Source: a virus (lineage: Duplodnaviria; Caudoviricetes). Taken from it: 64,000 bases of DNA. Both the position numbers and the translations under genes were made by a program. The DNA lies in the IMG/VR virus record IMGVR_UViG_3300042691_041259, positions 1-64,000 of that record. One strand, 5' to 3'. Shown here piece by piece: positions 1,858 through 63,031 of this stretch (positions are counted from its first letter, which is position 1; each line of letters opens with the position of its first letter). The notes beneath the pieces are model-generated. The model was not told the origin of the DNA. It saw only the letters and a list, made by a program, of their open reading frames with translations, and made no database searches.

Positions 1858-1916
1858 GTATAAAAATAATACAAAAAACCCAGAGATAAAAATCTCTGGG
1901 CCTAAAGTTATTAACA
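1858..1916 (-). promoter_or_regulatory. Class I bipartite promoter element with internal inverted repeat
   Basis: TGTTAATAACT-N33-GTATTATTTTTATAC; the spacer holds the cccagaga/tctctggg inverted repeat. Confidence 0.75.
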
Positions 1917-1925
1917 ATTTTACTG

Positions 1926-3869
1926 TTAATTGCCTTTTACAAATTCTCTCTTCTCCACTTTTCCATCCGCGGTTACAACTACCAAATATACACCATCAGG
2001 TAAATTGCTGATGTCAATACTTGATTGCGAGCTTGTATAATTGGTTGACAGAACATTGCTGCCTATTGAATTGTACACGCTTACAAATTTTTGTTCTCCA
2101 GCCATTTCATCTATAATGTTGATAAATGAGTTTGCCGGATTAGGAAAGATTGTGACTGCTTTGCTCTCTTCTATTTTTACTATAGGGCGAGTAATTTCTT
2201 CGGGTTTTGTATAAGCATTACGAAGAACCGCGCCTTGATTACTTACAACGCATTCATTCATCTCTTTAATAAAGATGTAACTTGCGCTACAGAAGTTTCC
2301 ACATGCCTGAGAAGTTCTCTTAATACGGTACCATGTAGAAATTAACAAAGTGGTATCAGTAAATGAGTCTCCACTCCCGGTTCTGATTAAGTTCCAGGAT
2401 TGTCCATCCGGAGATTCAAACAACTCCCATATTGAACAGCCCGAAACTGGCTGCTCATTTGTAGAATTAAATTGAAAAGTATAATCTCCTAATGTGGTTA
2501 ATTCATAATCAAAGCCTGGATTGATTACCGCGCTCATTCCTTGAAGACGTGCTATTAGTGGTCTTGGAGAACGTTGGTATCTGTCAGGCCATGCCATATA
2601 GTTTGTAAAAGCTCCACCCAAAAGGATTTCCCATTTGCCGTTTCCGTCTGGGCTATCCTGGATTGCCATGCATCGTCCTGCGCCCTGACCATAACTATTG
2701 ACTAGTACGCCATCCCAAGATACTAAGCCTCCAAGTCCTGCTCCAACATTATTGAGAATGAACTCGGGATTGATTATGCCATCATCAAAAGCAACTACTT
2801 TAGCAACAAATTTATCAACAGGGTTTGTTCCGATTGGTCGTTTAGAGCTTGCGCCCGCAAAGTTTCCGCAAGCTACCAATTGACAGTTGTAGTAACAGAG
2901 ATCTGCTATAGGCCCATTACAACCAGCATTGTATGTAGGATCAATTACCCATTCACCATTTGGTTGCACAGTAAATTTGGCGAGGCTCTTCAGCCCCTGC
3001 GCCGAACCGATAGAGGTGAAGGCCCCGCCAATGTATGCAATGTTTTCACCAGTTGAAATACCTGCGCAATCTTGTTCTGTTACAAATATTGCATCAAATA
3101 TTGTAGCGTTTGTAATTACATTGGTAAGTCCTACAATTGGTTTCAGAGTAAATGTACTCAAATCAACCGCAGCAAGACCTACGTAAGAATTACCGCCTAC
3201 TGTGTAGTTAATGTCGCCACCAATTAACAAGTTATTGGTGCCAGGGATGCGTCGGATAAATCGAATATCACCCACTGGCAGTGCTAGAGTTTGATAAGTT
3301 GCTCCAGTACTTCCGTTGCACGAAACCAATACTTGTGTTCCTGTTACGCCAAACGCGTAGTATAGTGTTCCTGTTGTTTCATCATAAAATCCCGCTTTTG
3401 AGACCTGAATCCAACTTGGGTAGGGGCAAAGAAAGTTTGGATCTATAGATCCATCAGCCTTTACCTTACTTACAAGTCGAATCCCAGCTTCGTTGGCGGT
3501 GCTACGTCCACCTACAAAGAAACATCCATTAGGCTTTCCATCAGGAGTTCTTTCAGGCTCAATATAGCATGTTGAATAATTTTTGCTCCAAGTTGACATA
3601 TGATTTGCCATGTATGTAGCATCTTCGTTTCCCAGCAAGTCAAACTTCCTAATTTTTGGAACGTTATTCATAGCGGAAAACCCAGCATAGACAGAGCCAT
3701 CGACTACTTCTATGCCAGCACAGTTGACATACCCTGCTGCCGAAAAGGGTATGCCGTTTAAATTTGGTTGGAATGTTGTATCCAACGAGGCAGCATACTG
3801 TGCGAACAGCTGGCTGCCGAGTAATAATAGCGCTGATATAAGAAGAGCGCCTTTTCTAAATAATTGCAT
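1926..3869 (-). CDS. Secreted beta-repeat protein with T9SS type A C-terminal sorting domain
   Basis: Signal peptide ending LFA-Q; delta-60-like turns (LDTTFQP, IDPNF, IDPTYN); C-terminus VTIFPNPANSFINI...VSVYNSIG...IDISNLPDGVYLVVV...REFVK is a typical type A CTD. Confidence 0.85.
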   Translation of the reverse strand: MQLFRKGALLISALLLLGSQLFAQYAASLDTTFQPNLNGIPFSAAGYVNCAGIEVVDGSVYAGFSAMNNVPKIRKFDLLGNEDATYMANHMSTWSKNYSTCYIEPERTPDGKPNGCFFVGGRSTANEAGIRLVSKVKADGSIDPNFLCPYPSWIQVSKAGFYDETTGTLYYAFGVTGTQVLVSCNGSTGATYQTLALPVGDIRFIRRIPGTNNLLIGGDINYTVGGNSYVGLAAVDLSTFTLKPIVGLTNVITNATIFDAIFVTEQDCAGISTGENIAYIGGAFTSIGSAQGLKSLAKFTVQPNGEWVIDPTYNAGCNGPIADLCYYNCQLVACGNFAGASSKRPIGTNPVDKFVAKVVAFDDGIINPEFILNNVGAGLGGLVSWDGVLVNSYGQGAGRCMAIQDSPDGNGKWEILLGGAFTNYMAWPDRYQRSPRPLIARLQGMSAVINPGFDYELTTLGDYTFQFNSTNEQPVSGCSIWELFESPDGQSWNLIRTGSGDSFTDTTLLISTWYRIKRTSQACGNFCSASYIFIKEMNECVVSNQGAVLRNAYTKPEEITRPIVKIEESKAVTIFPNPANSFINIIDEMAGEQKFVSVYNSIGSNVLSTNYTSSQSSIDISNLPDGVYLVVVTADGKVEKREFVKGN

Positions 3870-3889: not shown

Positions 3890-4306
3890 TTATTGCATAT
3901 TTGTAGATATGCTAGTCGTTTGTTGCACTGAGTACATGTACGGAGAATTAGGAAAGGCCATCCAATCAAATAACTCAAAGAAACAGTAGAAGGATTTCGC
4001 CTCCTCAAAGTAAACAATGAAGTAATGAGGATCCATATTTAAGAGCTCTGATTTGTAAACTCCATCAAGTTTTTGATCAAAGAATAGTTCTGCGGATTCT
4101 TTACGTATTACAAAACGCAATGCCTCGTTCCAAACAAGCAAAGAATCTTCATAATTTTCCATTTGATAGTATTGATCCGTTCTAATTAAGTACTCACCAT
4201 CTGGAAATACATTAGTAAGATGCGGAGAAAGATAAAGCGTATACAGCTTTTGTGAATTCATCACGGATGACAATGTCATCAGTGCTAAAAGTAGCAATGT
4301 TCTCAT
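3890..4306 (-). CDS. Small secreted protein (138 aa)
   Basis: Signal peptide MRTLLLLALMTLSSVMNS-Q; sits between two T9SS-cargo genes. Confidence 0.65.
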   Translation of the reverse strand: MRTLLLLALMTLSSVMNSQKLYTLYLSPHLTNVFPDGEYLIRTDQYYQMENYEDSLLVWNEALRFVIRKESAELFFDQKLDGVYKSELLNMDPHYFIVYFEEAKSFYCFFELFDWMAFPNSPYMYSVQQTTSISTNMQ

Positions 4307-4323: not shown

Positions 4324-6225
4324 TCAACGTACCAAACAAACACTTCCACGAAAAACGTGAATGAAATTAGTTTTGTCGGTCACATATATTAAGTACTCAT
4401 AAACATCAATTTGGCATTCAATTCCATCAATTGTACCATCCCATACAGGTGGTTCTTCAGAAGTTCTATCAAATATCTTAATTCCCCAACGGTCAAATAT
4501 CATCATTCTCACTTGTTTGTAGTGTGTGCCCATGCCTGCAAACAATCCATTTATTTGGTCTTCTGGATTTGGTGTAAAAGCATTTGGAACATAAAAACTA
4601 AATACCGGCTTTATTACAACTTCACCTTGAGAATATGCAACGCATCCATTTATATTTGTGGTTTGTAGAGTAATTGTATAGTTTCCCCACTGTCCATAGT
4701 TATGTACCGGGTTGGTTGCAGTACTGTAGTTTCCATCTCCAAAGTTCCATACATAATAGGTCCCTCCAGAAGAAAGATTTGTAAAAGTTACTTCAGGAGA
4801 TAGTTCATCAGTTTCCATTGGATCCAATATAAAACCTGAGGTAGGCGTAGGATACACCGTAATGACAGCCGACGCATTCTGGGTTGTTACACAGCCAGCC
4901 ACAGATGTTACAACTAGAGTTACAACATAAGTTCCTGGCGTTGCGTATGTATGGCTTGGATTCTGTTCCGCTGAATAAGTTCCATCACCAAAGTTCCAAT
5001 ACCATGAATAACCATTGGCTGAGGTGTTGTTAAAGTTTACTACCAGTGGCTGACATCCATTAGTGGCCGAAGGCTGAAATACTGATGTGGGCATTGGATT
5101 GACGCGAACCGTATGCACCACCATGTTTGAACATCCGCTTTCTGTTGTTACTGTCAAAACAACATTGTACAATCCAGGCATTGCATAGCTGTGAATGGGA
5201 TTGATTGCGGTTGATGATTGCCCATCGCCAAAGCTCCAATAATAACTTGCCACTATTGCATTTTGAACAGATACCGTGCTGGTAAATGTTACCGGGCTTC
5301 CATGGCAGACATCAAATGCGGTAAAATCCACATTAATGATTTCAGGAAGAAGCTCGGCAACTATTTCAGCCATGCATCCGCTGTAAGAAATAAGTTGACA
5401 AGTTACGTATTGGTTTGCTTGTGGATCTACAATAATACTTTGACCAGTATCGCCGGTACTCCAATTATAGTAGGCAAATCCAGGAGGTGCTGTTAGCGTA
5501 GCAAAATCATCGTCCACACAGTACTGAACATCAATTGTTAATGGCAAACATGATATACCATCAACGTAAGCATAACCATAGTGGCCTCCGAGAGCGCAAT
5601 CACCGGTCATGAATTCCAGAGTGATTGTTGTTCCTGCATAAAAAGACAGATCCACTCCTACAGTAGTCCAATTTTTGTAAGTGATATTGATAGTGTTTCC
5701 CTGAGAGTCAATTCCTGGGCAGGCCTGGAACCCAGGAAGATTTGACTCCGCAGTTACTCGATATTCTGTACATATCACAGTATCGCCATTTTCTAAAAGT
5801 ATGCGAGTTTGAAAGTTTGGCTGCTCCCAGTCTTCGTGACCAGGGTTTTCAAAAACAACCGCATATTCATAAAGCAATAAAGGGTTATCCGGATCTACAA
5901 AGAGATCAAAACGCAAGCCTTCTGCTTCTGCGCCAACATTAGAATTTCCTAAACGAGCTGAAAAGTTTCCACCGTTAGGTGAAACTACAGGGACTTGGCC
6001 ACAAGTATTAGGATCGGTTCCATTGCCCGACATAATTGTGTGCCTTCCTGGTATGATACCATTGTTTGGTAAGTCTATCGGGCAACACGTCCCGATGGTT
6101 CCTTGCCATCCTTGAAATGTTCCCGTTTCAAAATCGACATTTCCGCATTGAGCGGCTAACGGGTTGGATAGCAATAAGAAAACCGTATGCAAAATAATTG
6201 CAACGCACCACGAATAAATGTTCAT
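4324..6225 (-). CDS. PKD-domain protein with T9SS type B (gliding-motility-associated) C-terminal domain
   Basis: Signal peptide ending LAA-Q; three PKD repeats (WSFGDG, WNFGDG twice, HSY/HTY/HNY); C-terminal FYVPNAFTPN...IFDRWG..IF...WDG...Y.Y.I...G.V.LVR. Confidence 0.9.
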   Translation of the reverse strand: MNIYSWCVAIILHTVFLLLSNPLAAQCGNVDFETGTFQGWQGTIGTCCPIDLPNNGIIPGRHTIMSGNGTDPNTCGQVPVVSPNGGNFSARLGNSNVGAEAEGLRFDLFVDPDNPLLLYEYAVVFENPGHEDWEQPNFQTRILLENGDTVICTEYRVTAESNLPGFQACPGIDSQGNTINITYKNWTTVGVDLSFYAGTTITLEFMTGDCALGGHYGYAYVDGISCLPLTIDVQYCVDDDFATLTAPPGFAYYNWSTGDTGQSIIVDPQANQYVTCQLISYSGCMAEIVAELLPEIINVDFTAFDVCHGSPVTFTSTVSVQNAIVASYYWSFGDGQSSTAINPIHSYAMPGLYNVVLTVTTESGCSNMVVHTVRVNPMPTSVFQPSATNGCQPLVVNFNNTSANGYSWYWNFGDGTYSAEQNPSHTYATPGTYVVTLVVTSVAGCVTTQNASAVITVYPTPTSGFILDPMETDELSPEVTFTNLSSGGTYYVWNFGDGNYSTATNPVHNYGQWGNYTITLQTTNINGCVAYSQGEVVIKPVFSFYVPNAFTPNPEDQINGLFAGMGTHYKQVRMMIFDRWGIKIFDRTSEEPPVWDGTIDGIECQIDVYEYLIYVTDKTNFIHVFRGSVCLVR

Positions 6226-6291
6226 AGTTAAGCAAACTTCTTTTGAATAAGTAATTAAATATGAGTCTTATAGACTCTACAATGTTACAGT

Positions 6292-6300
6292 CTATATATC
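6292..6300 (-). promoter_or_regulatory. Class III (putative late) promoter GATATATAG
   Basis: Same 9-mer as upstream of the tape measure, sheath and neck genes; points toward 6225. Confidence 0.55.
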
Positions 6301-6337
6301 ACAGTGATTCTGGGCCGAGTGTGAATTTTACCCGTAG

Positions 6338-6346
6338 AATATATAG
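6338..6346 (+). promoter_or_regulatory. Class III (putative late) promoter AATATATAG, divergent copy
   Basis: Plus-strand variant upstream of the subtilase ATG at 6453. Confidence 0.5.
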
Positions 6347-6452
6347 AATGCGTAAACAAACCTCCACCCGAGGTTATACTTATATCTTTTTAATGCACTT
6401 TTATCTTGTGCAAAACCTACACTTTTTTCAACCTCAAAAAACAAAAAAACAA

Positions 6453-8717
6453 ATGAAAAAACTACTTGGCTTAGCCATTGCTTTGTTTGTCACATTCAGT
6501 TCCCTGGGACAGGACTATTCAAAGGAAGCAAATTATCACTATCTGCTTACGCCCAAACCGGGAAAGAAAGCAGATGACTTTAAATCCTTTATGGATCAAC
6601 CAGACGTAAAAATGCTCAAGCATCTAGACAAAGTAAATGTCTATATTGTAGAGCATAAAGGCGACCGTAAGAATTTTGAAAAGAGAGCAAAAGACTCTGG
6701 ACATTTTTCTATTGTTGAACGCGATAGCTTATACGAGGTTCAGCACGACTATATTCCAAATGATCCTCAATTTGCAGCGCAGTGGCATTGGAGAAGTTTA
6801 ACTGATAAAGATATTGATGCTGATGAGGCATGGGATCTTTTGCTACCATCAAACCAGCCAACAATAGTTGCTGTGTTGGATGGAGGAATTGAGCTTCTTC
6901 ACGAAGATCTCTTTTCTAACATTGTAACACCTTTTAACGCGGTAACTAATGCATATTCAAACGGTGAATTTGTAAATGCAGAAGACAAACATGGAACTGC
7001 TTGTAGCGGAGTTATTGCTGCAATTTCTAACAATTCAGTAGGCATCTCGGGTATTGGTAATAACAAAGTAAAAGTTATGCCTATCAATATCATGAGTGCT
7101 GTTAATGTAGGAGGATCGTTTTCAACTTCTTCACTGATACAAATAAACGCTGTTAACGCAGCAATTGCGCAAGGCTGTGCTGCTATTTCAATGTCATACG
7201 GAGGCAGCGGATATAGCGCAACTCTTGAGCAAGCATTTCAAACCGCAAAAACTCAAGCTCGTGGGGGAAAAGGTATGGTCATCTGCGCCTCTTCTGGTAA
7301 TGGGTCTTCAGGAACTGCACAACAATATCCTGCATGGTATTCTAACGTTTATGGGATTGGAGCTACTACATCAACAGACTTGAGATCATCTTTTAGCAAC
7401 TTTGGAAACATTGTTGATATCAGTGGTCCTGGTTCATCAATCCTTTCCACTGACAGAAATGGCGCAAACGGTTACAGCACGTCTTCAAACTACGCAAGCG
7501 TAAGCGGTACATCATTCAGTTGCCCATTGGTTGCTGGAGCAGCTGCATTGATTGCGTATCAAAATCCCAGTTTAACAGAAGCTCAAATTTGGCAAATACT
7601 TGCAACCACTGCTGAAAAGGTAGGTGGCTATACATATGCAAGTAATACAGCATGGCCTTTAAGTACGAGATGCCCAGAACTTGGATATGGCAGAGTTAAT
7701 TTAAAGTCTGCCATTCAAGCAGCGGGTGGAAGTACACCTCCACCCCCACCTCCGGTTGCTCATAATATCGTAATTACTAATTGCACTGTAAGCAATAATA
7801 CTCCTAACATTGGATCAACAGTTACTGTGTCAATTACTCAAGGAACCACGGCGCCAACTGCTTTGGCAGTTGCTCCAAAAGTTCAATATCGATTGTCAGT
7901 CGATAACTCATGGTCTAATGACGATATCATTCTAGGATCTGACACTTCTTTTATAGGTGGCGGAGTGACAAACCAAATTGAAACTCTTGCGTTCAATGTA
8001 GGAAATACAGCAGGAACACGTTACATTTTGTCAAGAGTTAATTTTGACGCCGCGGTTACAGAAACTTCATCAACCGACAATACTTGTTCCTTGATGATTA
8101 ACATTACAAATCCAGGAGCGAGCGGAACTGACGCGGAAGCTTTTTGGCTTCTACCATCGGTTACAACATGTAACAATTCAGTTAGTGTAGGCTACCGTTT
8201 TAAGAATGTTGGTTCAACTACAATTACTTCTATGACATGGAGATTGACTTGGGAAATTTGCCCTAACGGCGAACCAGGAATTCCTGCATATTACACTTGC
8301 ACAAACAATCTTAGTAGCTCAATGTTTGGAGGATTCAATATTGCGCCAGGCGCGCTTTCGCCTTCAACATACTATCAAGGTCTTTGCTTAATGAATTGCC
8401 CTGGAGCTACTAGCGGAACCACATATAATGTATTTCAAAATGGTCAAACCCGCTTAAGAAAGGTTGAAATTTTAACTGTCAATGGCGTGGCTGACGCTAA
8501 TGTGGCAAACAATTCTGATCTATTACCTATCACTAAAATTGCTTGTACTACTGCAAGCGTTGATGGAGTAGAACTCACAGAAGAACCGAAGATTAAGATC
8601 TTCACAATTACAGGAAGACCTTTGAGAGCAAAGACTATTGAAGAACTTCCAAGTGGAATGTATATCATTCACTTAATCTATAAAGATCGCACAGAAGTAA
8701 CAAAGTTTGCTAAGTAA
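6453..8717 (+). CDS. Secreted S8 (subtilisin-like) serine protease with a short T9SS-type-A-like C-terminus
   Basis: Start moved from 6261 to MKKLLGLAIALFVTFSSLG-Q. Catalytic triad motifs VAVLDGG, HGTACSG, GTSFSCP. CARDB/Ig-like tail. End IKIFTITGR...ELPSGMYIIHL...KFAK resembles a shortened CTD. The only convincing plus-strand gene in the window. Confidence 0.9.
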   Translation: MKKLLGLAIALFVTFSSLGQDYSKEANYHYLLTPKPGKKADDFKSFMDQPDVKMLKHLDKVNVYIVEHKGDRKNFEKRAKDSGHFSIVERDSLYEVQHDYIPNDPQFAAQWHWRSLTDKDIDADEAWDLLLPSNQPTIVAVLDGGIELLHEDLFSNIVTPFNAVTNAYSNGEFVNAEDKHGTACSGVIAAISNNSVGISGIGNNKVKVMPINIMSAVNVGGSFSTSSLIQINAVNAAIAQGCAAISMSYGGSGYSATLEQAFQTAKTQARGGKGMVICASSGNGSSGTAQQYPAWYSNVYGIGATTSTDLRSSFSNFGNIVDISGPGSSILSTDRNGANGYSTSSNYASVSGTSFSCPLVAGAAALIAYQNPSLTEAQIWQILATTAEKVGGYTYASNTAWPLSTRCPELGYGRVNLKSAIQAAGGSTPPPPPPVAHNIVITNCTVSNNTPNIGSTVTVSITQGTTAPTALAVAPKVQYRLSVDNSWSNDDIILGSDTSFIGGGVTNQIETLAFNVGNTAGTRYILSRVNFDAAVTETSSTDNTCSLMINITNPGASGTDAEAFWLLPSVTTCNNSVSVGYRFKNVGSTTITSMTWRLTWEICPNGEPGIPAYYTCTNNLSSSMFGGFNIAPGALSPSTYYQGLCLMNCPGATSGTTYNVFQNGQTRLRKVEILTVNGVADANVANNSDLLPITKIACTTASVDGVELTEEPKIKIFTITGRPLRAKTIEELPSGMYIIHLIYKDRTEVTKFAK

Positions 8718-8740: not shown

Positions 8741-8762
8741 AGGGGGCGAAAGCCCCTTTTTA
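8741..8762. terminator. Intrinsic terminator between convergent genes
   Basis: ggggc-gaaa-gcccc hairpin followed by a T-tract, with an A-rich run on the other side. Confidence 0.8.
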
Positions 8763-9038: not shown

Positions 9039-10208
9039 CTAGTTGCTAAGAGGAGCTTTAATGGCGGGATGCGACTGATAGTTTTCAATGATGAAATCAT
9101 CAATAGCAAATCCTCTAAGATTTGTTTTCAGTGGACCAATGCCACATTCACCGGATTCAGTTTGCCAAAATTCTGTATTGACGCTGAGCTTAGGCAATTC
9201 ATAAGGTTCTCTACCAATTTGTTCCTTTGCCTGTTCAATGTGGTTACTGTAGATGTGGACGTCGCCCAAATTTCCAATCAATTCATCAGGTACCATGTTG
9301 ATTTCTTTAGCAATGATTTCAAGTAGCAAACCATAACTCGCAATGTTGAATGGTAAACCTAAAAATGTATCTACTGATCTTTGATTCCACATTAGAGAGA
9401 TCGCTCTGGTTGGAGCATTAAATTTCTCAAGAACTTCAGCAACATTACCTTCCCATCCTAATCTATCAAAAAACTTAGGCATTTGTTGACTTCTATTTTT
9501 GATGACCCAATCTCTACGTTCACCGCTATTCAACTCTCTTGTATAAACTTGAAATCCATAATGACAAGGTGGAAGAACCATTTGGTCTAATTCACCTACA
9601 TTCCAAGCCGAAACCATTAGTCGTCTTGAGTCTGGATTTGTTTTGAGTTCAGAGATTAGGTTTGCGATTTGGTCTATATTATTACCAAAAGGCATATATT
9701 CACCATTAGCGGATATTTTATTTCTCCAACTTCTCCATTGCTTACCATAAATTGGACCTAATTCACCCCGCTTCTTAGCAAACTCAGAATCAATTTTAAT
9801 TCTATCTATAAAAGATTCTTTATCTAAATAGTCGAAACCCTCTAACCCATTTTCTTTGTGAGAAAGTATCACTGATTTTTGATAGTTCTTATACGCATCA
9901 CCATCCCAAATATGACAATTATTATCAACAAGGTATTTGATGTTAGTATCACCTCTCAAGAACCATAACAACTCAGTTACCATTGTTTTCCAAGCCATCT
10001 TTTTAGTTGTAAGCAATGGAAAGCCATCTTGCATATTATGTCTGATTTGTCTTCCAAATACTGATAATGTGCCTGTACCTGTTCGGTCTTTCTTTTCTAC
10101 TCCATTGTCTAGAATATCTTGTAGTAGGTCTTGGTAATCTAAATCTAATTGATTACCTACATGCTCATAAGCACCATTAGGTCCAATTTGAAAATCGTCT
10201 GATATCAT
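9039..10208 (-). CDS. thyA: Thymidylate synthase ThyA with insertions
   Basis: DRTGTGT, FPLLTTKK, ELLWFLRG, LGPIYGKQWR, SRRLMVSAWN, LPPCH, QRSVDTFLGLPFNIASY, GDVHIYSNH. Confidence 0.97.
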   Translation of the reverse strand: MISDDFQIGPNGAYEHVGNQLDLDYQDLLQDILDNGVEKKDRTGTGTLSVFGRQIRHNMQDGFPLLTTKKMAWKTMVTELLWFLRGDTNIKYLVDNNCHIWDGDAYKNYQKSVILSHKENGLEGFDYLDKESFIDRIKIDSEFAKKRGELGPIYGKQWRSWRNKISANGEYMPFGNNIDQIANLISELKTNPDSRRLMVSAWNVGELDQMVLPPCHYGFQVYTRELNSGERRDWVIKNRSQQMPKFFDRLGWEGNVAEVLEKFNAPTRAISLMWNQRSVDTFLGLPFNIASYGLLLEIIAKEINMVPDELIGNLGDVHIYSNHIEQAKEQIGREPYELPKLSVNTEFWQTESGECGIGPLKTNLRGFAIDDFIIENYQSHPAIKAPLSN

Positions 10209-10502: not shown

Positions 10503-12311
10503 TTATCGTATTAGTGTTACTATTCCACTTTGTTCTTTGTTAAATCCATCACGGTCTCTATATTTTACAACCCAGTTGTATGTATCAGTGGGTGGGTAAT
10601 ATCCGGTTCCGGAATCGCCGGTCCAAATAAGATTTGAAGATTCGTATATTGGTGCACCCCAACGATTAAAAATTGTCATTTTTGGATAGTACGCAGATAA
10701 AGCCGTTATCCTAAAAACATCGTTAATTCCATCACCGTTTGGTGTAAAAGAGTTTGGAGCATAAAATCTTTCGCAAGAAGTTGTGCTTATACTTATTTCT
10801 TGTGTGCTGCTTTGACAGCCTATTTCATCAATTCCATAAACACCTATGACATAGGTATTTGTGGTATCATACCATTCTACTGTAAAAACATTTCCATCTG
10901 TACTTTGTAATGAATTGTCAATTGACCAATAATATGAAAAGCTTCTGATATCATCTGCAACATATCTTTGGCTTGGCGAGTCCAAGCAGAGATCCAGCTC
11001 TTGTTTTGTATAACTTATGTTAGGCGCCTGGTATAAAGGCTCTACCGTTACATCAATACTTTTGCTAACATCGCATCCGTAAATGTTGGTGAGATACTCA
11101 GGCCAATAAACTCCTGGCTGGGAGCCTACAAAAACGTTTCCGTTTACATAGTCTCCAGTCCAGATTCCGCCTATAGGAAGAGCGCTTAAATTGGCTGATT
11201 GATTATAGCAAATTCTATAGGAGCTGCTGATTTCAATTTCAGGAACAACCAGTTCCACGTCGCAAGTTTTAAGTGTGCTTTCGCATCCTTGCGGCGTAAT
11301 CTCTTGGACAGTGATTGTGTATGTTCCGGGAATCTCCCCCCAGAGTATTTCACAGTTTGATGTTTGATCCGTGGTAACTAGGCCTCCGCCTGACAGATGC
11401 CAATCGTAAATAGAGAACTGGCTTCCTGTGACTGCGTAACCAACCTCGGATCCTGTACAAGTAGTATCAGGACATGGTATTAGATTGTGAGTAATATCTC
11501 CCATACTAAAGTATCCGCAAGAGCCATCATCACAGCCTGCCAGTATATCAAAATTGCAAGCACCTGGATCTGTGCATCCACCATATGTACAACTGCCATC
11601 ATCGCAAAGAGCGGCTGGGTTAAAGTTGCATGCAATTGGATCTATGCAATCGGGAAAAGAGCAGCTTCCGTTATCACAGTCCGCTGCAGGATTGTAATTA
11701 CAAGCTGTGGCATCGGTGCAGCCCGCGGTAAGGCAGCCAATTGTTCCGCCAAAAATAGGAAACTCCGGATCGAAGCACATTTCAGTTCCCCAACTACCCA
11801 TACTACCATCAGCAAATGGTGTAACGCCAATTGTTAGATCAAGCGGAACACCAACATTTGCCACAGTCAAAGAAGCACAAAAATTCCAAATGCAATCACC
11901 CATCATACAGTAGTCTCCCCAGTCATTTCCGGGATTTCCATCGGTTGGACCGGTAGGGCCTTCAAAGAAATAACCAGGTCCTGCGGTAATTCCTGTTGCA
12001 TCGGAAGTAACGTTGTCTACCCATAGCCAAGTTCCACTAGCATCGCCATCAGCATCGGAAGGCGGACTAACTGGAACCACGGATTCCCAGCCTTCGCCAA
12101 GGGTTAAACCAAATCCTTCAAACCAATTGGATCCTTGAGCATTTCCATTCCACCCATCTTGGGTAACACAAAGTTCCACTACCGTACCTGGTGGGTACGT
12201 GTTATCAGGGTTTGGTGGAGTGTCGAGTACAAAGGACAGATTCCCTGAGCACTGTGCACAACTGACCAGGCAGGAAATTGTGAGTCCTACCAAAAGAATT
12301 AGTTTTTTCAT
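10503..12311 (-). CDS. Cys-rich repeat secreted protein with T9SS type B C-terminal domain
   Basis: Signal peptide ending SCA-Q; three GCTDxxACNYNPxAxCDxGSC repeats; C-terminal FYAPNSFTPNGDGINDVF...IFNRWG..IY...W.G...Y.W...G.VTLIR. Confidence 0.9.
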   Translation of the reverse strand: MKKLILLVGLTISCLVSCAQCSGNLSFVLDTPPNPDNTYPPGTVVELCVTQDGWNGNAQGSNWFEGFGLTLGEGWESVVPVSPPSDADGDASGTWLWVDNVTSDATGITAGPGYFFEGPTGPTDGNPGNDWGDYCMMGDCIWNFCASLTVANVGVPLDLTIGVTPFADGSMGSWGTEMCFDPEFPIFGGTIGCLTAGCTDATACNYNPAADCDNGSCSFPDCIDPIACNFNPAALCDDGSCTYGGCTDPGACNFDILAGCDDGSCGYFSMGDITHNLIPCPDTTCTGSEVGYAVTGSQFSIYDWHLSGGGLVTTDQTSNCEILWGEIPGTYTITVQEITPQGCESTLKTCDVELVVPEIEISSSYRICYNQSANLSALPIGGIWTGDYVNGNVFVGSQPGVYWPEYLTNIYGCDVSKSIDVTVEPLYQAPNISYTKQELDLCLDSPSQRYVADDIRSFSYYWSIDNSLQSTDGNVFTVEWYDTTNTYVIGVYGIDEIGCQSSTQEISISTTSCERFYAPNSFTPNGDGINDVFRITALSAYYPKMTIFNRWGAPIYESSNLIWTGDSGTGYYPPTDTYNWVVKYRDRDGFNKEQSGIVTLIR

Positions 12312-13342: not shown

Positions 13343-13351
13343 CTATTTATA
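13343..13351 (-). promoter_or_regulatory. Class III promoter TATAAATAG (contains the T4 late consensus TATAAATA)
   Basis: Heads the run 13324, 13121, 12637, 12311. Confidence 0.55.
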
Positions 13352-14222: not shown

Positions 14223-14270
14223 TGTAAAAATAATACAAAAGTTTCACATCTGAAAATTTAGTTGTTAACA
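14223..14270 (-). promoter_or_regulatory. Class I element, spacer 10 nt shorter than the others
   Basis: TGTTAACAACT-N23-GTATTATTTTTAC; the box overlaps the end of the upstream CDS. Confidence 0.55.
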
Positions 14271-14770
14271 TCATACGGAGGATATAGACACCGTTCAGCT
14301 TTTTCAATAAAGCCATTTTGACCAAACCCCATACGATAGTCTGTCTGGATAAACCGGCTTCCCAGTTCCGAGAGATCCGTATCATCTACTGCGCACCAGG
14401 TTGCAACTGTGTTTATGAGAAGCCACTCCCGGATTTCCCGAACTCGTATGCTTTCAGGGCTTTCGCCAAATCTTTCAGGTGGCAACTGTGGCGTAAACGA
14501 AATAGGAGATTTTGCCACCCCATTGATTTTGAATATGAGATCACATGTGTCTTGCGAAAAATGCTTACGCCAATCGGAAGAGAGAACAATATTCATCTCG
14601 GCATTCATCAGCAAAAAGCGATTGAAAGCAATAACGCATTTTTCATCAAACATATACGGAACGCCAAGACCATAAGCATGCCGATCACGCTTCCACAGAT
14701 TATCTCGGTTTGTATGAAATTGCTTAGGAAGAGCAAGCACACCATCTATGTCAAGGAATACAACTTTCAT
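14258..14770 (-). CDS. HAD-domain protein of the Swiss-Army-Knife RNA-repair type (HAD_SAK_2-like)
   Basis: MKVVFLDIDGVL, IVLSSDWR, R..EI.EWL, W.AVDD.DL. Confidence 0.85.
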   Translation of the reverse strand: MKVVFLDIDGVLALPKQFHTNRDNLWKRDRHAYGLGVPYMFDEKCVIAFNRFLLMNAEMNIVLSSDWRKHFSQDTCDLIFKINGVAKSPISFTPQLPPERFGESPESIRVREIREWLLINTVATWCAVDDTDLSELGSRFIQTDYRMGFGQNGFIEKAERCLYPPYDVNN

Positions 14771-17179: not shown

Positions 17180-17205
17180 TTATATTCAACAAGTGAAAAG
17201 AGTTT
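17180..17205 (-). promoter_or_regulatory. Class II promoter-like motif AAACT-N-AATATAA
   Basis: Same spacing as the copies at 334, 26586, 28512, 38071 and 51167. Confidence 0.5.
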
Positions 17206-17509: not shown

Positions 17510-17576
17510 AGTTATCCATGTGGTATAATTTTTTAATTTGCCTAATTGCGGTTAACTTGGTTAATTAGACTATATA

Positions 17577-20280: not shown

Positions 20281-20585
20281 ATGAGCGTACAGATTGGAAT
20301 GTTTACAAAACCCGAGTTTACATATCGGTGAGGCTCCTGGACAATCCCGTTTTTTACCAGGAAGTCAAGCATTCCCACGTTCTCGGAATAGTCTTTGACA
20401 GCGACCTCGTTCTCCGCAAGTCCCTCAATCCAGGTAGTTGCTGTTGCAAACGGAAACCCGTCCTCAGCATCGTTAAGCTGGATGGCAGTACCGCCGTTTC
20501 GATATTCGGCTTTGGATACCGTAACTTGGTATTCCTTTTGAAATAATTTGTAGGTCATAGAGTGACCACTGGTGTTATCTGACAT
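20277..20585 (-). CDS. Hypothetical protein (102 aa)
   Basis: Follows a class I element; ATGA overlap with uvsE. Confidence 0.65.
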   Translation of the reverse strand: MSDNTSGHSMTYKLFQKEYQVTVSKAEYRNGGTAIQLNDAEDGFPFATATTWIEGLAENEVAVKDYSENVGMLDFLVKNGIVQEPHRYVNSGFVNIPICTLI

Positions 20586-20611
20586 TTTGTATATAGTTTA
20601 CTATTTAATAA

Positions 20612-20670
20612 GTATAAAAGTAATACAAAGAACCCAGAGAAAAAAATCTCTGGGCCTTTAGTTATTAACA
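20612..20670 (-). promoter_or_regulatory. Class I element with internal inverted repeat
   Basis: TGTTAATAACT-N33-GTATTACTTTTATAC; cccagaga/tctctggg in the spacer, as at 1858. Confidence 0.75.
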
Positions 20671-30045: not shown

Positions 30046-30072
30046 TTGTTCTATTTATTCATTAAGTGTTTA

Positions 30073-36797: not shown

Positions 36798-36808
36798 CTA
36801 TATATCAA
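36798..36808 (-). promoter_or_regulatory. Class III promoter TTGATATATAG
   Basis: About 20 nt upstream of the tape-measure ATG, just after a terminator. Confidence 0.7.
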
Positions 36809-42746: not shown

Positions 42747-42757
42747 CTATATATCAA
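42747..42757 (-). promoter_or_regulatory. Class III promoter TTGATATATAG
   Basis: Upstream of the sheath gene. Confidence 0.7.
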
Positions 42758-59936: not shown

Positions 59937-60439
59937 TAGGAATTAACTCTTTTGAACAGAAACTCCTCAGTAACAATGATGAAGTTCTTATTATTAAGCC
60001 GGGCAAACTCTTGCGCTGCTTTAAATTTTGCCCGGTTTACCAACCAATCTGCTGCCATTTTATTGTATTCCTTTAGTCTCTTTATAGTAGTCAGACCTTC
60101 TTTCATTGAAGGCTGCTTTAAAGATTTTGAAGGTTTGATTTCTACCAGGTATTCAACTGGGCCATCCGGCTTTTGCAACTTCATATAAAAGTCTACAAAA
60201 TAACTGTGTTCCCTATTGTCCAAAGGACTAATGTATGGGATCGGAACTGGCTCAGAAGACCAAGAAATAACTTCAGGGGTTGAGTCGCAATATTTGCAAA
60301 AACGATACTCCCAAGAAGAACGATAAATGATTTTTGATGGATCACCTATATACTTCTCAGGAATGTTAGGCACAAAATAACCCTGCCGAAAACGGCTTCT
60401 CTTATGAGGTGGATTTGTTTTGTTGGTTTTTGCTCTCAC
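59936..60439 (-). CDS. Head completion nuclease (T4 gp4-like)
   Basis: KYIGDPSKIIYRSSWE..F..YCD..P..I.WSSE...IPY..P.D...H.YFVDF, LVEIKP, N.AK..AA. Confidence 0.92.
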   Translation of the reverse strand: MRAKTNKTNPPHKRSRFRQGYFVPNIPEKYIGDPSKIIYRSSWEYRFCKYCDSTPEVISWSSEPVPIPYISPLDNREHSYFVDFYMKLQKPDGPVEYLVEIKPSKSLKQPSMKEGLTTIKRLKEYNKMAADWLVNRAKFKAAQEFARLNNKNFIIVTEEFLFKRVNS

Positions 60440-60873
60440 AGTGTAAACACATTATCGTGACTGAGCGATACTTTTTCTCCAGCAGACAGCGGATGCAATT
60501 TACGCCATCCTTTTGCAAAGCCGTTTTTGATCATTTGCGTAAAATATGCAAAAGGATCTTTTGATTTTTCTGGATTGTAACTTCTCCAGTAACGTACCAC
60601 GTCCATCATTGCAAAAGCAATACAGTCTTTTCGATCTTCTTCATCACGATATCTCAATTTTTTAGAAGCTTCGCGAGCCATAGTCTGAAACATCTCAATT
60701 GCTCGAGGAGTCAGCGCATCTTTTTCGCGAGACCTTAAAACTTCTTCTCGAAGTTCTTTGGGATCAACGTAATAGTTTGATGGATTCTTTTTTACGCGGC
60801 CGGTGTTGCTGCGTTGGATGTCTCCCTTTCCTTCTCCAGGGAGTTCTTGTAGGTTGTTAGTTCCGTTATGCAT
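60436..60873 (-). CDS. Late-transcription sigma factor (T4 gp55-like); start codon uncertain
   Basis: NYYVD.KEL...., D.KDCIA.A..D....W..YNPEKS.DPFAYFTQ...N.F. Confidence 0.8.
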   Translation of the reverse strand: MHNGTNNLQELPGEGKGDIQRSNTGRVKKNPSNYYVDPKELREEVLRSREKDALTPRAIEMFQTMAREASKKLRYRDEEDRKDCIAFAMMDVVRYWRSYNPEKSKDPFAYFTQMIKNGFAKGWRKLHPLSAGEKVSLSHDNVFTL

Positions 60874-61421
60874 GAGTCTATTGCTTCTGATGAGAATGAA
60901 GTTCCTTCATCAACGGTTATTTTAAGTTCTTGAAGTTGCGCAATAGCGTTTTCGACTTGAACCAACACGTTGTCCATTTTACCGGTTACTTCATCTGGTT
61001 TGTTTTCATCTGTTTTCGGATTGTTTTTTATATCCGTTTCAGAATTGTATACACCAGCTTCAAAAAGTTTTACGTCGGACTTCTTAACGCTTGCCAACTT
61101 CTTATTAGGCAATATGATATCCACATTTTCGTTGTCGGCTTTTGATGTGTAGTCAAGAGCTTTAATCTGGACTTCGGTTCCAGCTGGAACCCCTTGTACC
61201 GCAACGCTAAGTTTTGCTTTTACGTACCCCTCTTGTTTTTCCTCTTTAATAGCAACGGTCCCGCCATCCCCTTGTGAATTGATTTCAACAGGATTGCCGG
61301 ACTTTGCTCGATGCTTTTTGTCTAGGGGCTGAAGGAGTTTAGCCTCTACTTTAGAGGTATCTCCTTTATCATCGACTACAGTAATGATTCCACCAGCGGA
61401 GTCAACCGCGGTAATGTTCAC
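60792..61421 (-). CDS. -1 frame continuation of the 524-aa gene (GTG start in the track)
   Basis: Begins on the last base of an A_AAA_AAG heptamer; its first residues complete a beta-barrel begun in the upstream ORF. Confidence 0.65.
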   Translation of the reverse strand: MNITAVDSAGGIITVVDDKGDTSKVEAKLLQPLDKKHRAKSGNPVEINSQGDGGTVAIKEEKQEGYVKAKLSVAVQGVPAGTEVQIKALDYTSKADNENVDIILPNKKLASVKKSDVKLFEAGVYNSETDIKNNPKTDENKPDEVTGKMDNVLVQVENAIAQLQELKITVDEGTSFSSEAIDSCITELTTYKNSLEKERETSNAATPAA

Positions 61422-61431
61422 TTTTTTTTTC
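61385..61431 (-). promoter_or_regulatory. Candidate programmed -1 ribosomal frameshift signal
   Basis: GGA AAA AAA AAG TGA followed 6 nt later by the TTACCGCGG-TTGACT-CCGC(T)GGTGG hairpin. Confidence 0.7.
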
Positions 61432-62992
61432 CTAGCGTAGCGGTGTCGCCTACATTAAAACCAAGGCCTTCAGATACTGTGGTGGCTGCGGTTTCAGCGT
61501 TGGCAAGCTTAGCGTATTCAGACTTAAGAAAATTGATCTCTTCATCAATTGCAGAGATGAGATCTTTTACCTCAGCCTCTTCGCTCATTCCGTCAGGAAG
61601 ATTTTCAAGCTTTGAACGTTGCTCAGTAAGATGAGCTATTGACTGTACAAATTCTTCTTTAAGTGTAGACATCTTTTTCAATTCCTTTTCCTCCTCATTT
61701 AAGAGTTCGGCAAATGTAGAAGAAATGTCAGTCTTCATGAATTCCATTACAAGATTCTTGGTTTGAGTAGCATTGCAATCTGTGTAGAATACGCTTTCAT
61801 TCATCAATTTGTTTGACTTGTTGATGAAGATATTTTCTCCCAAGAAGAATAGTGTCATTGATTTGCCAGCGTCAGACTTTGATGTGATAGTCTTGGCAAA
61901 ATCCATTTCAAAAATATTGTTCCAGTTTTCAGAGATAGCAAAAATAGCATTAATGTTTTTGCTTTCAGTCATTCTGAATACTCCAGCATTAAGATATACT
62001 TTATGAATGTCTTCTTTATTTACAACCTTTCCATTGATCTTTACTTGAGACTCGCTGATTTCAATCACTTTGTCTCCTGAGTATAACTTAATCAAGCCTT
62101 CAGCCACAATTACGTTATCCCAGGTAAGAATATCAGCTACTGCTTTGAAAGATTCTGGAAGAGCTGTTATCTCATCGCTTGATGCAATGGCAATAGAATT
62201 ACCTTCTTTTTTGTATACTTGTGAACCTGCAAGGAAAAACTCGCTGGATTCTGCTATGAAAACTGGTGAATATACTCGGTTGATATTGCAGCTAGTATCG
62301 CTTGCTGCTATATGGAAAGCTCTTTCAGATTCAGAAAGAAACTTATGCAGATTTTTTACATTTGGATCAAATAAAAACTGTGAAGCCTTTTCCATGAGCT
62401 TTACTCTTGAAGAAGAATTGCGATTGTTCAAATACTCATCTAATTGAGCAGACATTGCTGGCATTAAATAGTTTGAAGTAGAACGCTTAATGTTTTCTAC
62501 AATTTTGTAGATTGTAATTTCTTCACGGAATTTCTCAGAATTCTCTGTCAATGATTTCAAACATTCATTAACAGTAGGATCCCAGTTAAATGGTGTGAGG
62601 GAAGCGATAACGCTTTCAATAATCATCCATTCTGGTTGTGCAGTCACAGCTTTAAGCTTTTCAAACATATATGAGAAAGCTGGATGCTTTGAGATCTCAG
62701 ACTCGCCAATAACAGCAAATGTCTTCTTTACTCCGAGATTGTTTAAGTTTTCGATTCTCTTTTCGATAACGTTCATTGAAATGAACTGCTTTGCAGACTC
62801 ATCCTCAATTTTTGACAGACCTTCAATAAGTGTGTTCAAAATATCTGCCTCAAGAACTGAGTTTTCTTCTGCAGAAATAGCATAGGCGTTATTGCTGTCG
62901 ATTCGACGGATAGCCTCGTTGCATGCATTAAGTACTGCGGTTGACGTTGTTTTGGTCTGCAGTGTTTCAATTCTATTTCTTAGTGTAGACAT
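61418..62992 (-). CDS. Hypothetical, largely helical protein (524 aa), head-gene cluster
   Basis: Follows a class III motif; ends in the A9 run. Confidence 0.75.
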   Translation of the reverse strand: MSTLRNRIETLQTKTTSTAVLNACNEAIRRIDSNNAYAISAEENSVLEADILNTLIEGLSKIEDESAKQFISMNVIEKRIENLNNLGVKKTFAVIGESEISKHPAFSYMFEKLKAVTAQPEWMIIESVIASLTPFNWDPTVNECLKSLTENSEKFREEITIYKIVENIKRSTSNYLMPAMSAQLDEYLNNRNSSSRVKLMEKASQFLFDPNVKNLHKFLSESERAFHIAASDTSCNINRVYSPVFIAESSEFFLAGSQVYKKEGNSIAIASSDEITALPESFKAVADILTWDNVIVAEGLIKLYSGDKVIEISESQVKINGKVVNKEDIHKVYLNAGVFRMTESKNINAIFAISENWNNIFEMDFAKTITSKSDAGKSMTLFFLGENIFINKSNKLMNESVFYTDCNATQTKNLVMEFMKTDISSTFAELLNEEEKELKKMSTLKEEFVQSIAHLTEQRSKLENLPDGMSEEAEVKDLISAIDEEINFLKSEYAKLANAETAATTVSEGLGFNVGDTATLGKKK

Positions 62993-63022
62993 GTGCCTTA
63001 TTTTGTTTTTATTTTCTTCTAA

Positions 63023-63031
63023 CTATATATC
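63023..63031 (-). promoter_or_regulatory. Class III promoter GATATATAG
   Basis: Heads the run 524-aa gene, sigma, gp4, gp2, portal, fibre. Confidence 0.65.

Follow-up and report, generated by a model that had tools for sequence, protein, structure and literature searches.

The 227-bp gap at positions 6226-6452 of the window (the whole stretch of DNA analysed here, which is the first 64 kb of a single viral contig of 202,505 bp) contains two copies of a box that stands before the virion genes of the same phage, and the pair faces outward, toward genes for secreted proteins on either side. On the minus strand the gap holds the exact box GATATATAG, which is written CTATATATC on the strand shown, and on the plus strand it holds the variant AATATATAG (Table 1). 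Judging from the sequence, we consider it reasonably probable that these boxes are two late-class promoters which drive the operon of the PKD-repeat cargo and the subtilase gene together with the virion genes, by way of a gp55-like sigma factor. This reading draws on the statistics of the motif, its placement relative to genes, its association with one class of genes, the insulation of the two transcription units and its partial conservation in related phages, all of which are directly observed.

The phage and its predicted secreted proteins

The contig has 40% GC and a completeness of ~66% (CheckV), and a simple codon-usage gene call finds 210 genes, 205 on the minus strand and 5 on the plus strand. 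Profile searches identify genes like those of myoviruses of the T4 superfamily (terminase, tail sheath, Hc2-like neck and portal), with further matches to a gp4-like head closure protein, a gp2-like end protector, a gp15-like sheath stabiliser and a collagen-like fibre; the phage is a T4-like jumbo phage of Bacteroidota. In the databases the terminase is closest, at 33-40% identity, to those of distant T4-superfamily jumbo phages. For the terminase and the gp55-like protein together, the nearest relatives lie in uncultured megaphages, Prevotella Lak phages, Sphingomonas phage PAU and T4-like cyanophages, and the Lak megaphages, phage PAU and the Tenacibaculum jumbo phages are the closest database kin of the two proteins. 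A nucleotide search of a phage collection returned no match to the phage, and within the 64-kb window an Rfam scan found no family and no tRNA genes were found.

The preliminary description of this DNA had called several of its genes T9SS cargo, and the call holds for three of them, whose type A or type B CTDs match above the model cut-offs; the type A CTD of the subtilase is sub-threshold, at 19 bits compared with a cut-off of 23. Signal peptides were read from the sequence. The type-A cargo, which possibly adopts a beta-propeller-like fold, has no relative in IMG/VR, and the PKD cargo has only a distant PKD-domain match; an Atlas look-up offers the lead that PKD-associated domains are common to Bacteroidota and some viral proteins. 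The four signal-peptide proteins on either side of the gap are predicted to leave the cell by way of the host's Sec and type IX machinery.

Sorting-domain genes of this kind have precedents in phages of Bacteroidota. The relevant passages of earlier work place T9SS sorting-domain genes in variable islands of the "Cryophage" (Bellas et al. 2020, PMC7468147) and, in phage clusters, near crAss-BACON genes (de Jonge et al. 2019, PMC6949934), and as far as those passages go the present phage is similar, in that its sorting-domain genes too lie in a variable region of the genome. It differs from what they describe in that two of its three cargo units stand behind the promoter class of the virion genes, and in carrying a protease and type B domains as well. 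The passages of the two papers that treat T9SS or sorting domains do not describe the regulation of the cargo genes.

A box associated with virion genes, and two other promoter classes

Three promoter classes were recognised in the contig by k-mer enrichment upstream of genes combined with inspection of every gap. The boxes of the gap belong to class C, which is a -10-only box of the form GATA(T/A)ATA(G). Its exact form, GATATATAG, heads the sheath, neck, gp15-like and giant tail (2234-aa) genes, while GATAAATA heads the portal gene and GATATATAC the tail-fibre gene; a sister form, GGATAAATA, occurs before the portal gene and about nine others, and at four sites an A takes the place of the first-position G. 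Class C serves all the recognisable virion genes that have a promoter to themselves. The three promoters found on the plus strand (6338, 165664 and 197666) are also all of class C, and no other class is represented there.

The preliminary description had reported a degenerate motif at 6292, 6338, 13343, 36798, 42747, 47380 and 63023, and all of these coordinates are correct; the sites at 36798, 42747, 47380 and 63023 are all GATATATAG on the minus strand, and to them can be added exact boxes at 17570 and 25637, together with AATAAATAG at 30051. As to whether the motif exceeds its frequency in shuffled AT-rich intergenic DNA, the answer depends on how tightly it is defined. The degenerate form DATAWATAG is only mildly enriched (the window has 10 copies where 3.7 are expected, and 1 of 100 shuffles also attains 10), which places the real signal in the exact 9-mer GATATATAG. 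This 9-mer is present in 20 copies in the contig, seven of them in the 64-kb window, compared with an expectation of ~1.1 and a maximum of 4 in 100 dinucleotide shuffles. When the intergenic DNA, which is AT-rich and makes up 4.75% of the contig, is itself shuffled as the control, the 16 copies that are wholly intergenic stand against 0.11 expected, a number reached in 0 of 1000 shuffles.

The placement of the exact box is as uneven as its abundance. Eighteen of the copies lie on the minus strand, which is the coding strand, and two on the plus strand, and 19 of the 20 are in the sense orientation within 110 nt of a start codon, mostly 15-36 nt upstream of it, where uniform placement would put 5.7%. 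Several copies lie directly 3' of an intrinsic terminator. Alignment of 29 sites gives 8 invariant positions, no conserved upstream or -35 element, and an A-rich stretch at +3 to +10 after the box. Outside the window, two more exact boxes stand in divergent orientation at genome positions 165631 (minus) and 165664 (plus), 24 nt apart (L006:15631-15672), in a near-palindromic gap that heads a 736-aa gene and a 90-aa plus-strand gene.

The variant AATATATAG calls for separate treatment. Its count is not enriched genome-wide (4 found against 2.0 expected), and it is the placement that is informative: all four copies lie sense-upstream of genes, namely those for the subtilase, ribonucleotide reductase (RNR), a 2187-aa protein and a 949-aa protein, which has a probability of ~1e-5 under uniform placement and, as a rough estimate that allows for the AT-richness of the gaps, of 1e-4 to 1e-3. 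The copy at genome position 84572 on the minus strand (L002:6572) lies 54 nt before the ribonucleotide reductase gene, within the end of the upstream ORF; it may be a box of late type in front of a gene with an early-type function, or it may have arisen by chance.

The two other classes differ in structure and in the genes they precede. Class A is a ~75-nt repeat made up of TGTTAATAAC, a terminator hairpin and then TTGTATTATTTTTA; its 11 copies lie ~20 nt upstream of small ORFs (in the window at 1861-1935, 14225-14300, 16511, 20615, 21419, 27664 and 51953). The class shows no match to the Bacteroidota TTTG/TAnnTTTG consensus, and is presumably the early class. Class B is a two-element promoter, GAAAC-N14-GAATATAA, with ~20 sites (in the window at 17180, 19306, 26586, 28512, 29369 and 51167), and it precedes the genes for the clamp loader (gp44-like), a DnaB-like helicase, topoisomerase II, SSB, dUTPase and an ECF-type sigma factor. 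This sigma factor, a 205-aa protein with regions 2 and 4 encoded at L008:6179-6796 (genome 192179-192796), stands behind a class-B promoter itself, and the class-B genes probably form a middle regulon served by a sigma of their own. A promoter of two elements suits an ECF sigma with two domains, just as a box at -10 alone suits a gp55 that has region 2 only. The genes headed by class C are virion structural genes and not core replication genes, with the exception of the RNR gene behind AATATATAG, and it is this difference in gene content, between virion genes and differently promoted replication genes, that supports the label "late" for class C. The class is not purely structural, since boxes precede not only the RNR gene but also the genes for a homing endonuclease and an S1-domain protein (both with the exact box); a further one precedes an amidoligase gene.

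Table 1. Features of the window bearing on the divergent gap, in window coordinates
Feature	Position	Strand	Remarks
Exact class-C box GATATATAG	6292..6300	-	66 nt before ATG of PKD/type-B cargo
Variant box AATATATAG	6338..6346	+	~106-107 nt before subtilase ATG (6453); divergent from 6292
Predicted 5' leader of cargo operon	6226..6291	-	66 nt; 6-bp hairpin 6263-6277
Predicted long 5' leader of subtilase mRNA	6347..6452	+	106 nt; z = -3.9, small hairpins only
PKD-repeat protein with type B T9SS sorting domain	4324..6225	-	TIGR04131/PF13585 above cut-off; signal peptide; first gene of unit
138-aa protein with signal peptide	3890..4306	-	Second gene of unit
Protein with type A T9SS sorting domain	1926..3869	-	TIGR04183/PF18962 above cut-off; third gene of unit
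Intrinsic terminator closing cargo operon	1876..1903	-	12-bp stem and T run; then class-A promoter for next gene
Secreted S8 subtilase	6453..8717	+	Signal peptide MKKLLGLAIALF...; degenerate type A end; single-gene unit
Hairpin GGGGGCGAAAGCCCC, GC-rich, T runs on both strands	8741..8757	both	Bidirectional terminator between subtilase and thymidylate-synthase run
Cys-rich type B cargo, 31 Cys	10503..12311	-	TIGR04131/PF13585 above cut-off
TATAAATAG, claimed late box of Cys-rich run	13343..13351	-	18 nt before 67-aa ORF; not supported
Class-A promoter element TTGTATTATTTTTA	14225..14238	-	Heads run holding Cys-rich cargo
Reference late box before tail sheath gene	42747..42755	-	Exact GATATATAG
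Other exact boxes in window	17570, 25637, 36798, 47380, 63023		
gp55-like late sigma factor	60436..60873	-	phrog_234 "late sigma transcription factor", E 1.9e-13; presumed reader of box

The divergent gap and its transcription units

The minus-strand unit that begins in the gap consists of the PKD/type-B cargo, the 138-aa secreted protein, the type-A cargo and a terminator, in that order, and the plus-strand unit consists of a leader, the subtilase gene alone and a bidirectional terminator. Each unit is insulated from its surroundings. The subtilase is one of only five plus-strand genes among the 210; read-through cannot reach it, and its transcription therefore has to begin inside the gap. 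Transcription from upstream is kept out of the cargo operon by the bidirectional terminator at 8741-8757 and by 2.3 kb of antisense subtilase gene. No class-A element, class-B element or Bacteroidota TTTG-N-TAnnTTTG element is found in the gap, which leaves the box as the only recognisable promoter of each unit. Scaled from the intergenic shuffles, the number of chance copies expected in a gap of 227 nt is ~0.003 for the exact box and ~0.009 for the A variant.

Some features of the gap concern the leaders. Both of them are longer than the usual class-C spacing, and the fold of the cargo-operon leader is no better than that of shuffled sequences (z = 0). An ATG at 6348, one base past AATATATAG, is in frame with the subtilase with no intervening stop, and would add 35 residues before the signal peptide; this ATG is probably not used, because it lies at or before the predicted start site of transcription. 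The site at 6338 was also considered as a class-B promoter, since GAATATATAG at 6337 resembles the -10 element GAATATAA, and this was rejected because GAAAC is absent 14 nt upstream.

Under the favoured interpretation, the gap would act as two back-to-back, outward-facing late-class promoters, analogous to the T4 box TATAAATA; their reader would most likely be the core RNA polymerase of the host with the phage's gp55-like sigma factor bound to it. The minus-strand box would start a three-gene mRNA encoding the PKD/type-B cargo, the 138-aa protein and the type-A cargo and ending at the intrinsic terminator, while the variant box on the plus strand would start a single-gene subtilase mRNA with a leader of ~100 nt, ending at the bidirectional terminator. 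The four signal-peptide proteins would then be made together with the virion proteins and exported through Sec and the type IX machinery in the last part of infection.

Related phages conserve this arrangement in part. An 89.8-kb contig (G001; loci L009 and L013-L017) is syntenic with the window over the clamp loader, neck, terminase, sheath and giant tail genes, its proteins sharing 30-52% identity with those of the window, and its box takes the form RATATATA(G/C/A): the neck gene has AATATATAG in G001 and GATATATAG in the window, and the sheath gene has GATATATAA in G001 and GATATATAG in the window. The subtilase gene of G001 (locus L009) has AATATATAC 141 nt upstream, 13 nt past a tRNA-Met gene and a terminator, to be compared with AATATATAG ~106-107 nt upstream in the window; in a second relative (L011; 43% identity) TATAAATAG lies 178 nt before the subtilase gene, after a tRNA-Arg gene. 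A rough estimate puts the probability that a loose late-type box arises by chance at 0.1-0.3 for each of the long AT-rich gaps in L009 and L011, so these boxes are individually weak; taken with their post-terminator placement, they support what looks like a conserved late-type promoter with a long leader. In the closest subtilase relative (L010; 53% identity) the 100-nt gap lacks a box, and the gene may be part of a transcript that starts at a GATAAATAT box two genes further upstream. An alignment of the four subtilase upstream regions reveals no clearly shared motif. The subtilase orthologues of L009 (4154-5810, 8366-8452) and L011 (3-3602) are flanked by phage tRNA genes (Met, Arg, Leu). A homologue of the 138-aa protein in G001 (20303-20659; 30% identity) immediately follows the giant tail gene and precedes the subtilase by two genes.

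Relatives ~90-99% alike are also present, as assembled contigs, in four freshwater-sediment metatranscriptome runs. One of these RNA-library contigs (5804-6820) bridges the divergent gap, which makes DNA carry-over in the libraries likely; another ends at 6315, between the boxes. Contigs from two such runs (X14, depth 31; X9) join ~14235 to ~1904 (in window coordinates, endpoints 1901-1904 to 14234-14237), with ~30 other letters between and both ends in class-A repeats. The whole intervening 12.3-kb block, with the thymidylate synthase, the subtilase and all the T9SS cargo genes, may thus be absent from some related genomes; it is also possible that the join is a repeat-mediated assembly artefact.

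The third cargo unit must be considered separately. The preliminary description had held that the cargo genes in general are wired into the late programme of the phage, and this finds support in the case of the PKD operon and the subtilase, from the box, the insulation, the strand and the orthologues, and finds none in the case of the Cys-rich cargo, for which TATAAATAG at 13343 had been taken as the late box at the head of the run. Genome-wide, TATAAATAG is found once where 2.6 copies are expected, and its one intergenic copy compares with 0.35 expected, 29% of shuffles doing as well. The site at 13343 is the only stand-alone one with T in the first position, the other box copies near genes starting with G or A. 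The same run has a class-A element at its head (14225), and holds both the Cys-rich cargo and the thymidylate synthase (9039-10208). Homologues of the Cys-rich cargo at 62% identity occur in viral contigs of 66-322 kb from a separate lineage of ~34% GC with unrelated neighbours (L018-L021, match 6001-7815), and no late-type box is found in the 90 nt before the homologue or before either of its two upstream ORFs; the gene appears to move between phages. Because TATAAATAG is at chance frequency, the run has a class-A head and the homologues are boxless, the Cys-rich cargo is not counted in the late regulon.

Comparison with T4 late control and alternative readings

The T4 late promoter TATAAATA is read by gp55 together with gp33 and the gp45 sliding clamp. 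Class C resembles the T4 late promoters in several respects: both are TATA-type, -10-only boxes of 8-9 bp without a -35 element and with AT-rich DNA downstream, both are tightly adhered to and tolerate A in the first position, both head virion genes, both are present on the two strands, and a gp55 homologue is encoded in each phage. For T4, tight adherence to the late box has been reported, with A replacing T at the first position (-13) in 9 of 50 late promoters (PMC2988020). The present box differs from TATAAATA in its consensus, which is GATATATAG (or GATAAATA): the first position is G and not T, T is preferred at the fifth and G is conserved at the ninth. The exact T4 consensus is not that of the present phage; its only stand-alone copy (13343) is no more than chance would give, and most of the remaining TATAAATA strings are portions of the class-B element GAATATAAATA. 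A further difference is that the host belongs to Bacteroidota, whose own promoters are unlike those of E. coli. A literature text search for GATATATA as a phage promoter returned unrelated papers only, and the box system would seem to be a variant of T4-type late control not previously reported in the literature searched.

The gp55-like gene to which the preliminary description had pointed is indeed present in the window (Table 1). Its product has a weak match to sigma-70 region 2, and tblastn finds it in Lak megaphages at 45% identity and in more than 200 T4-like cyanophages; the single match in a search of PDB sequences was spurious, so that there is no direct PDB match. The Pfam models of the gp45 clamp (PF02916, PF09116) have no match in the contig as far as it is complete. 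The only element found at the head of the run that holds the gp55-like gene is the class-C box at 63023 (span 60436-63031), with neither class A nor class B represented before the gene, and a second, basal route to gp55 expression is therefore needed. Promoter activity, late timing and dependence on gp55 we infer from this likeness and from the observations on the box described above.

The timing of class C is the point at which another interpretation competes most directly with the late one. Class C might be a general phage-specific class active from middle times on, which would leave the cargo under phage control without timing it to lysis. The boxes before the RNR, homing endonuclease, S1-domain and amidoligase genes and before the run of the gp55 gene would suit such a class, but T4 late promoters likewise serve some non-structural genes, the core replication genes of the present phage use the two-element class and have an ECF sigma, and all recognisable virion genes with their own promoter use class C. 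The late reading is further favoured because class C is the sole class found on the plus strand, which matches the observation in T4 that only late transcripts run in both directions (PMC2988020). We regard a general class of this kind as unlikely. A lower probability attaches to the suggestion that the motifs in the gap are non-functional or secondary and that the cargo genes are early or constitutive morons transcribed from unrecognised promoters of host type that arrived along with them. Leaders of 66 and 106 nt could hide another promoter, there is a weak sigma-70-like match at 6353-6380 on the plus strand, and the subtilase of L010 has no box; against this, the exact 9-mer is so rarely expected by chance in a gap of this size, both boxes face their genes, and the GC content of the cargo block equals the genome mean. 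Nor does the gap contain a promoter of Bacteroidota type (12 of 252 copies of TAnnTTTG lie in the intergenic DNA of the phage, with no obvious concentration in a comparison made without shuffles), and the region has 39 matches of E. coli type, fewer than the 46.7 expected from shuffles. On balance we think this quite improbable.

It may also be asked whether the box acts in transcription initiation at all, since its fixed orientation and short distance to the start codon would suit an element of the 5'-UTR, and GATATATAG could in principle work at the level of RNA or bind a protein, for example as a processing site, translational operator or binding site of a regulator. However, the box resembles the T4 late box in a phage that has a gp55 homologue, it often lies just past intrinsic terminators, where transcription must restart, and it heads units on the minority strand for which no upstream transcription is possible (6338 and 165664), so that we give this explanation very little credence. 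The reading in which the two boxes of the gap are late-class promoters is the one that we retain.

If the two units are indeed transcribed with the virion genes, the presence of most of the secreted set in the virion-gene regulon argues that these proteins are of use to the phage in the final stage of infection, and against their being silent leftovers from a host. As to their purpose, we advance only as a speculation, and a rather doubtful one, that the late secreted set (the subtilase, the adhesin-like PKD protein, the propeller-like protein and the small protein) is an "exit kit" delivered by the phage through the type IX machinery before lysis. Such a kit, if it exists, would strip or remodel the cell surface. 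It could destroy receptors or gliding adhesins and so keep progeny from being trapped on debris or on cells already infected, or it could loosen the surrounding matrix; it would be a secretion-system-dependent counterpart of receptor-destroying enzymes. The new point is a modest one, that most of the secreted set of this phage would be wired to late control of the T4 type. A 9-bp box with a candidate sigma factor provides a concrete handle for testing, and the proposed programme of three classes (A; B with the ECF sigma; C with gp55) would apply to an uncultured group of Bacteroidota jumbo phages, in which the promoter classes could be used to sort many of the unknown genes by their expected timing.
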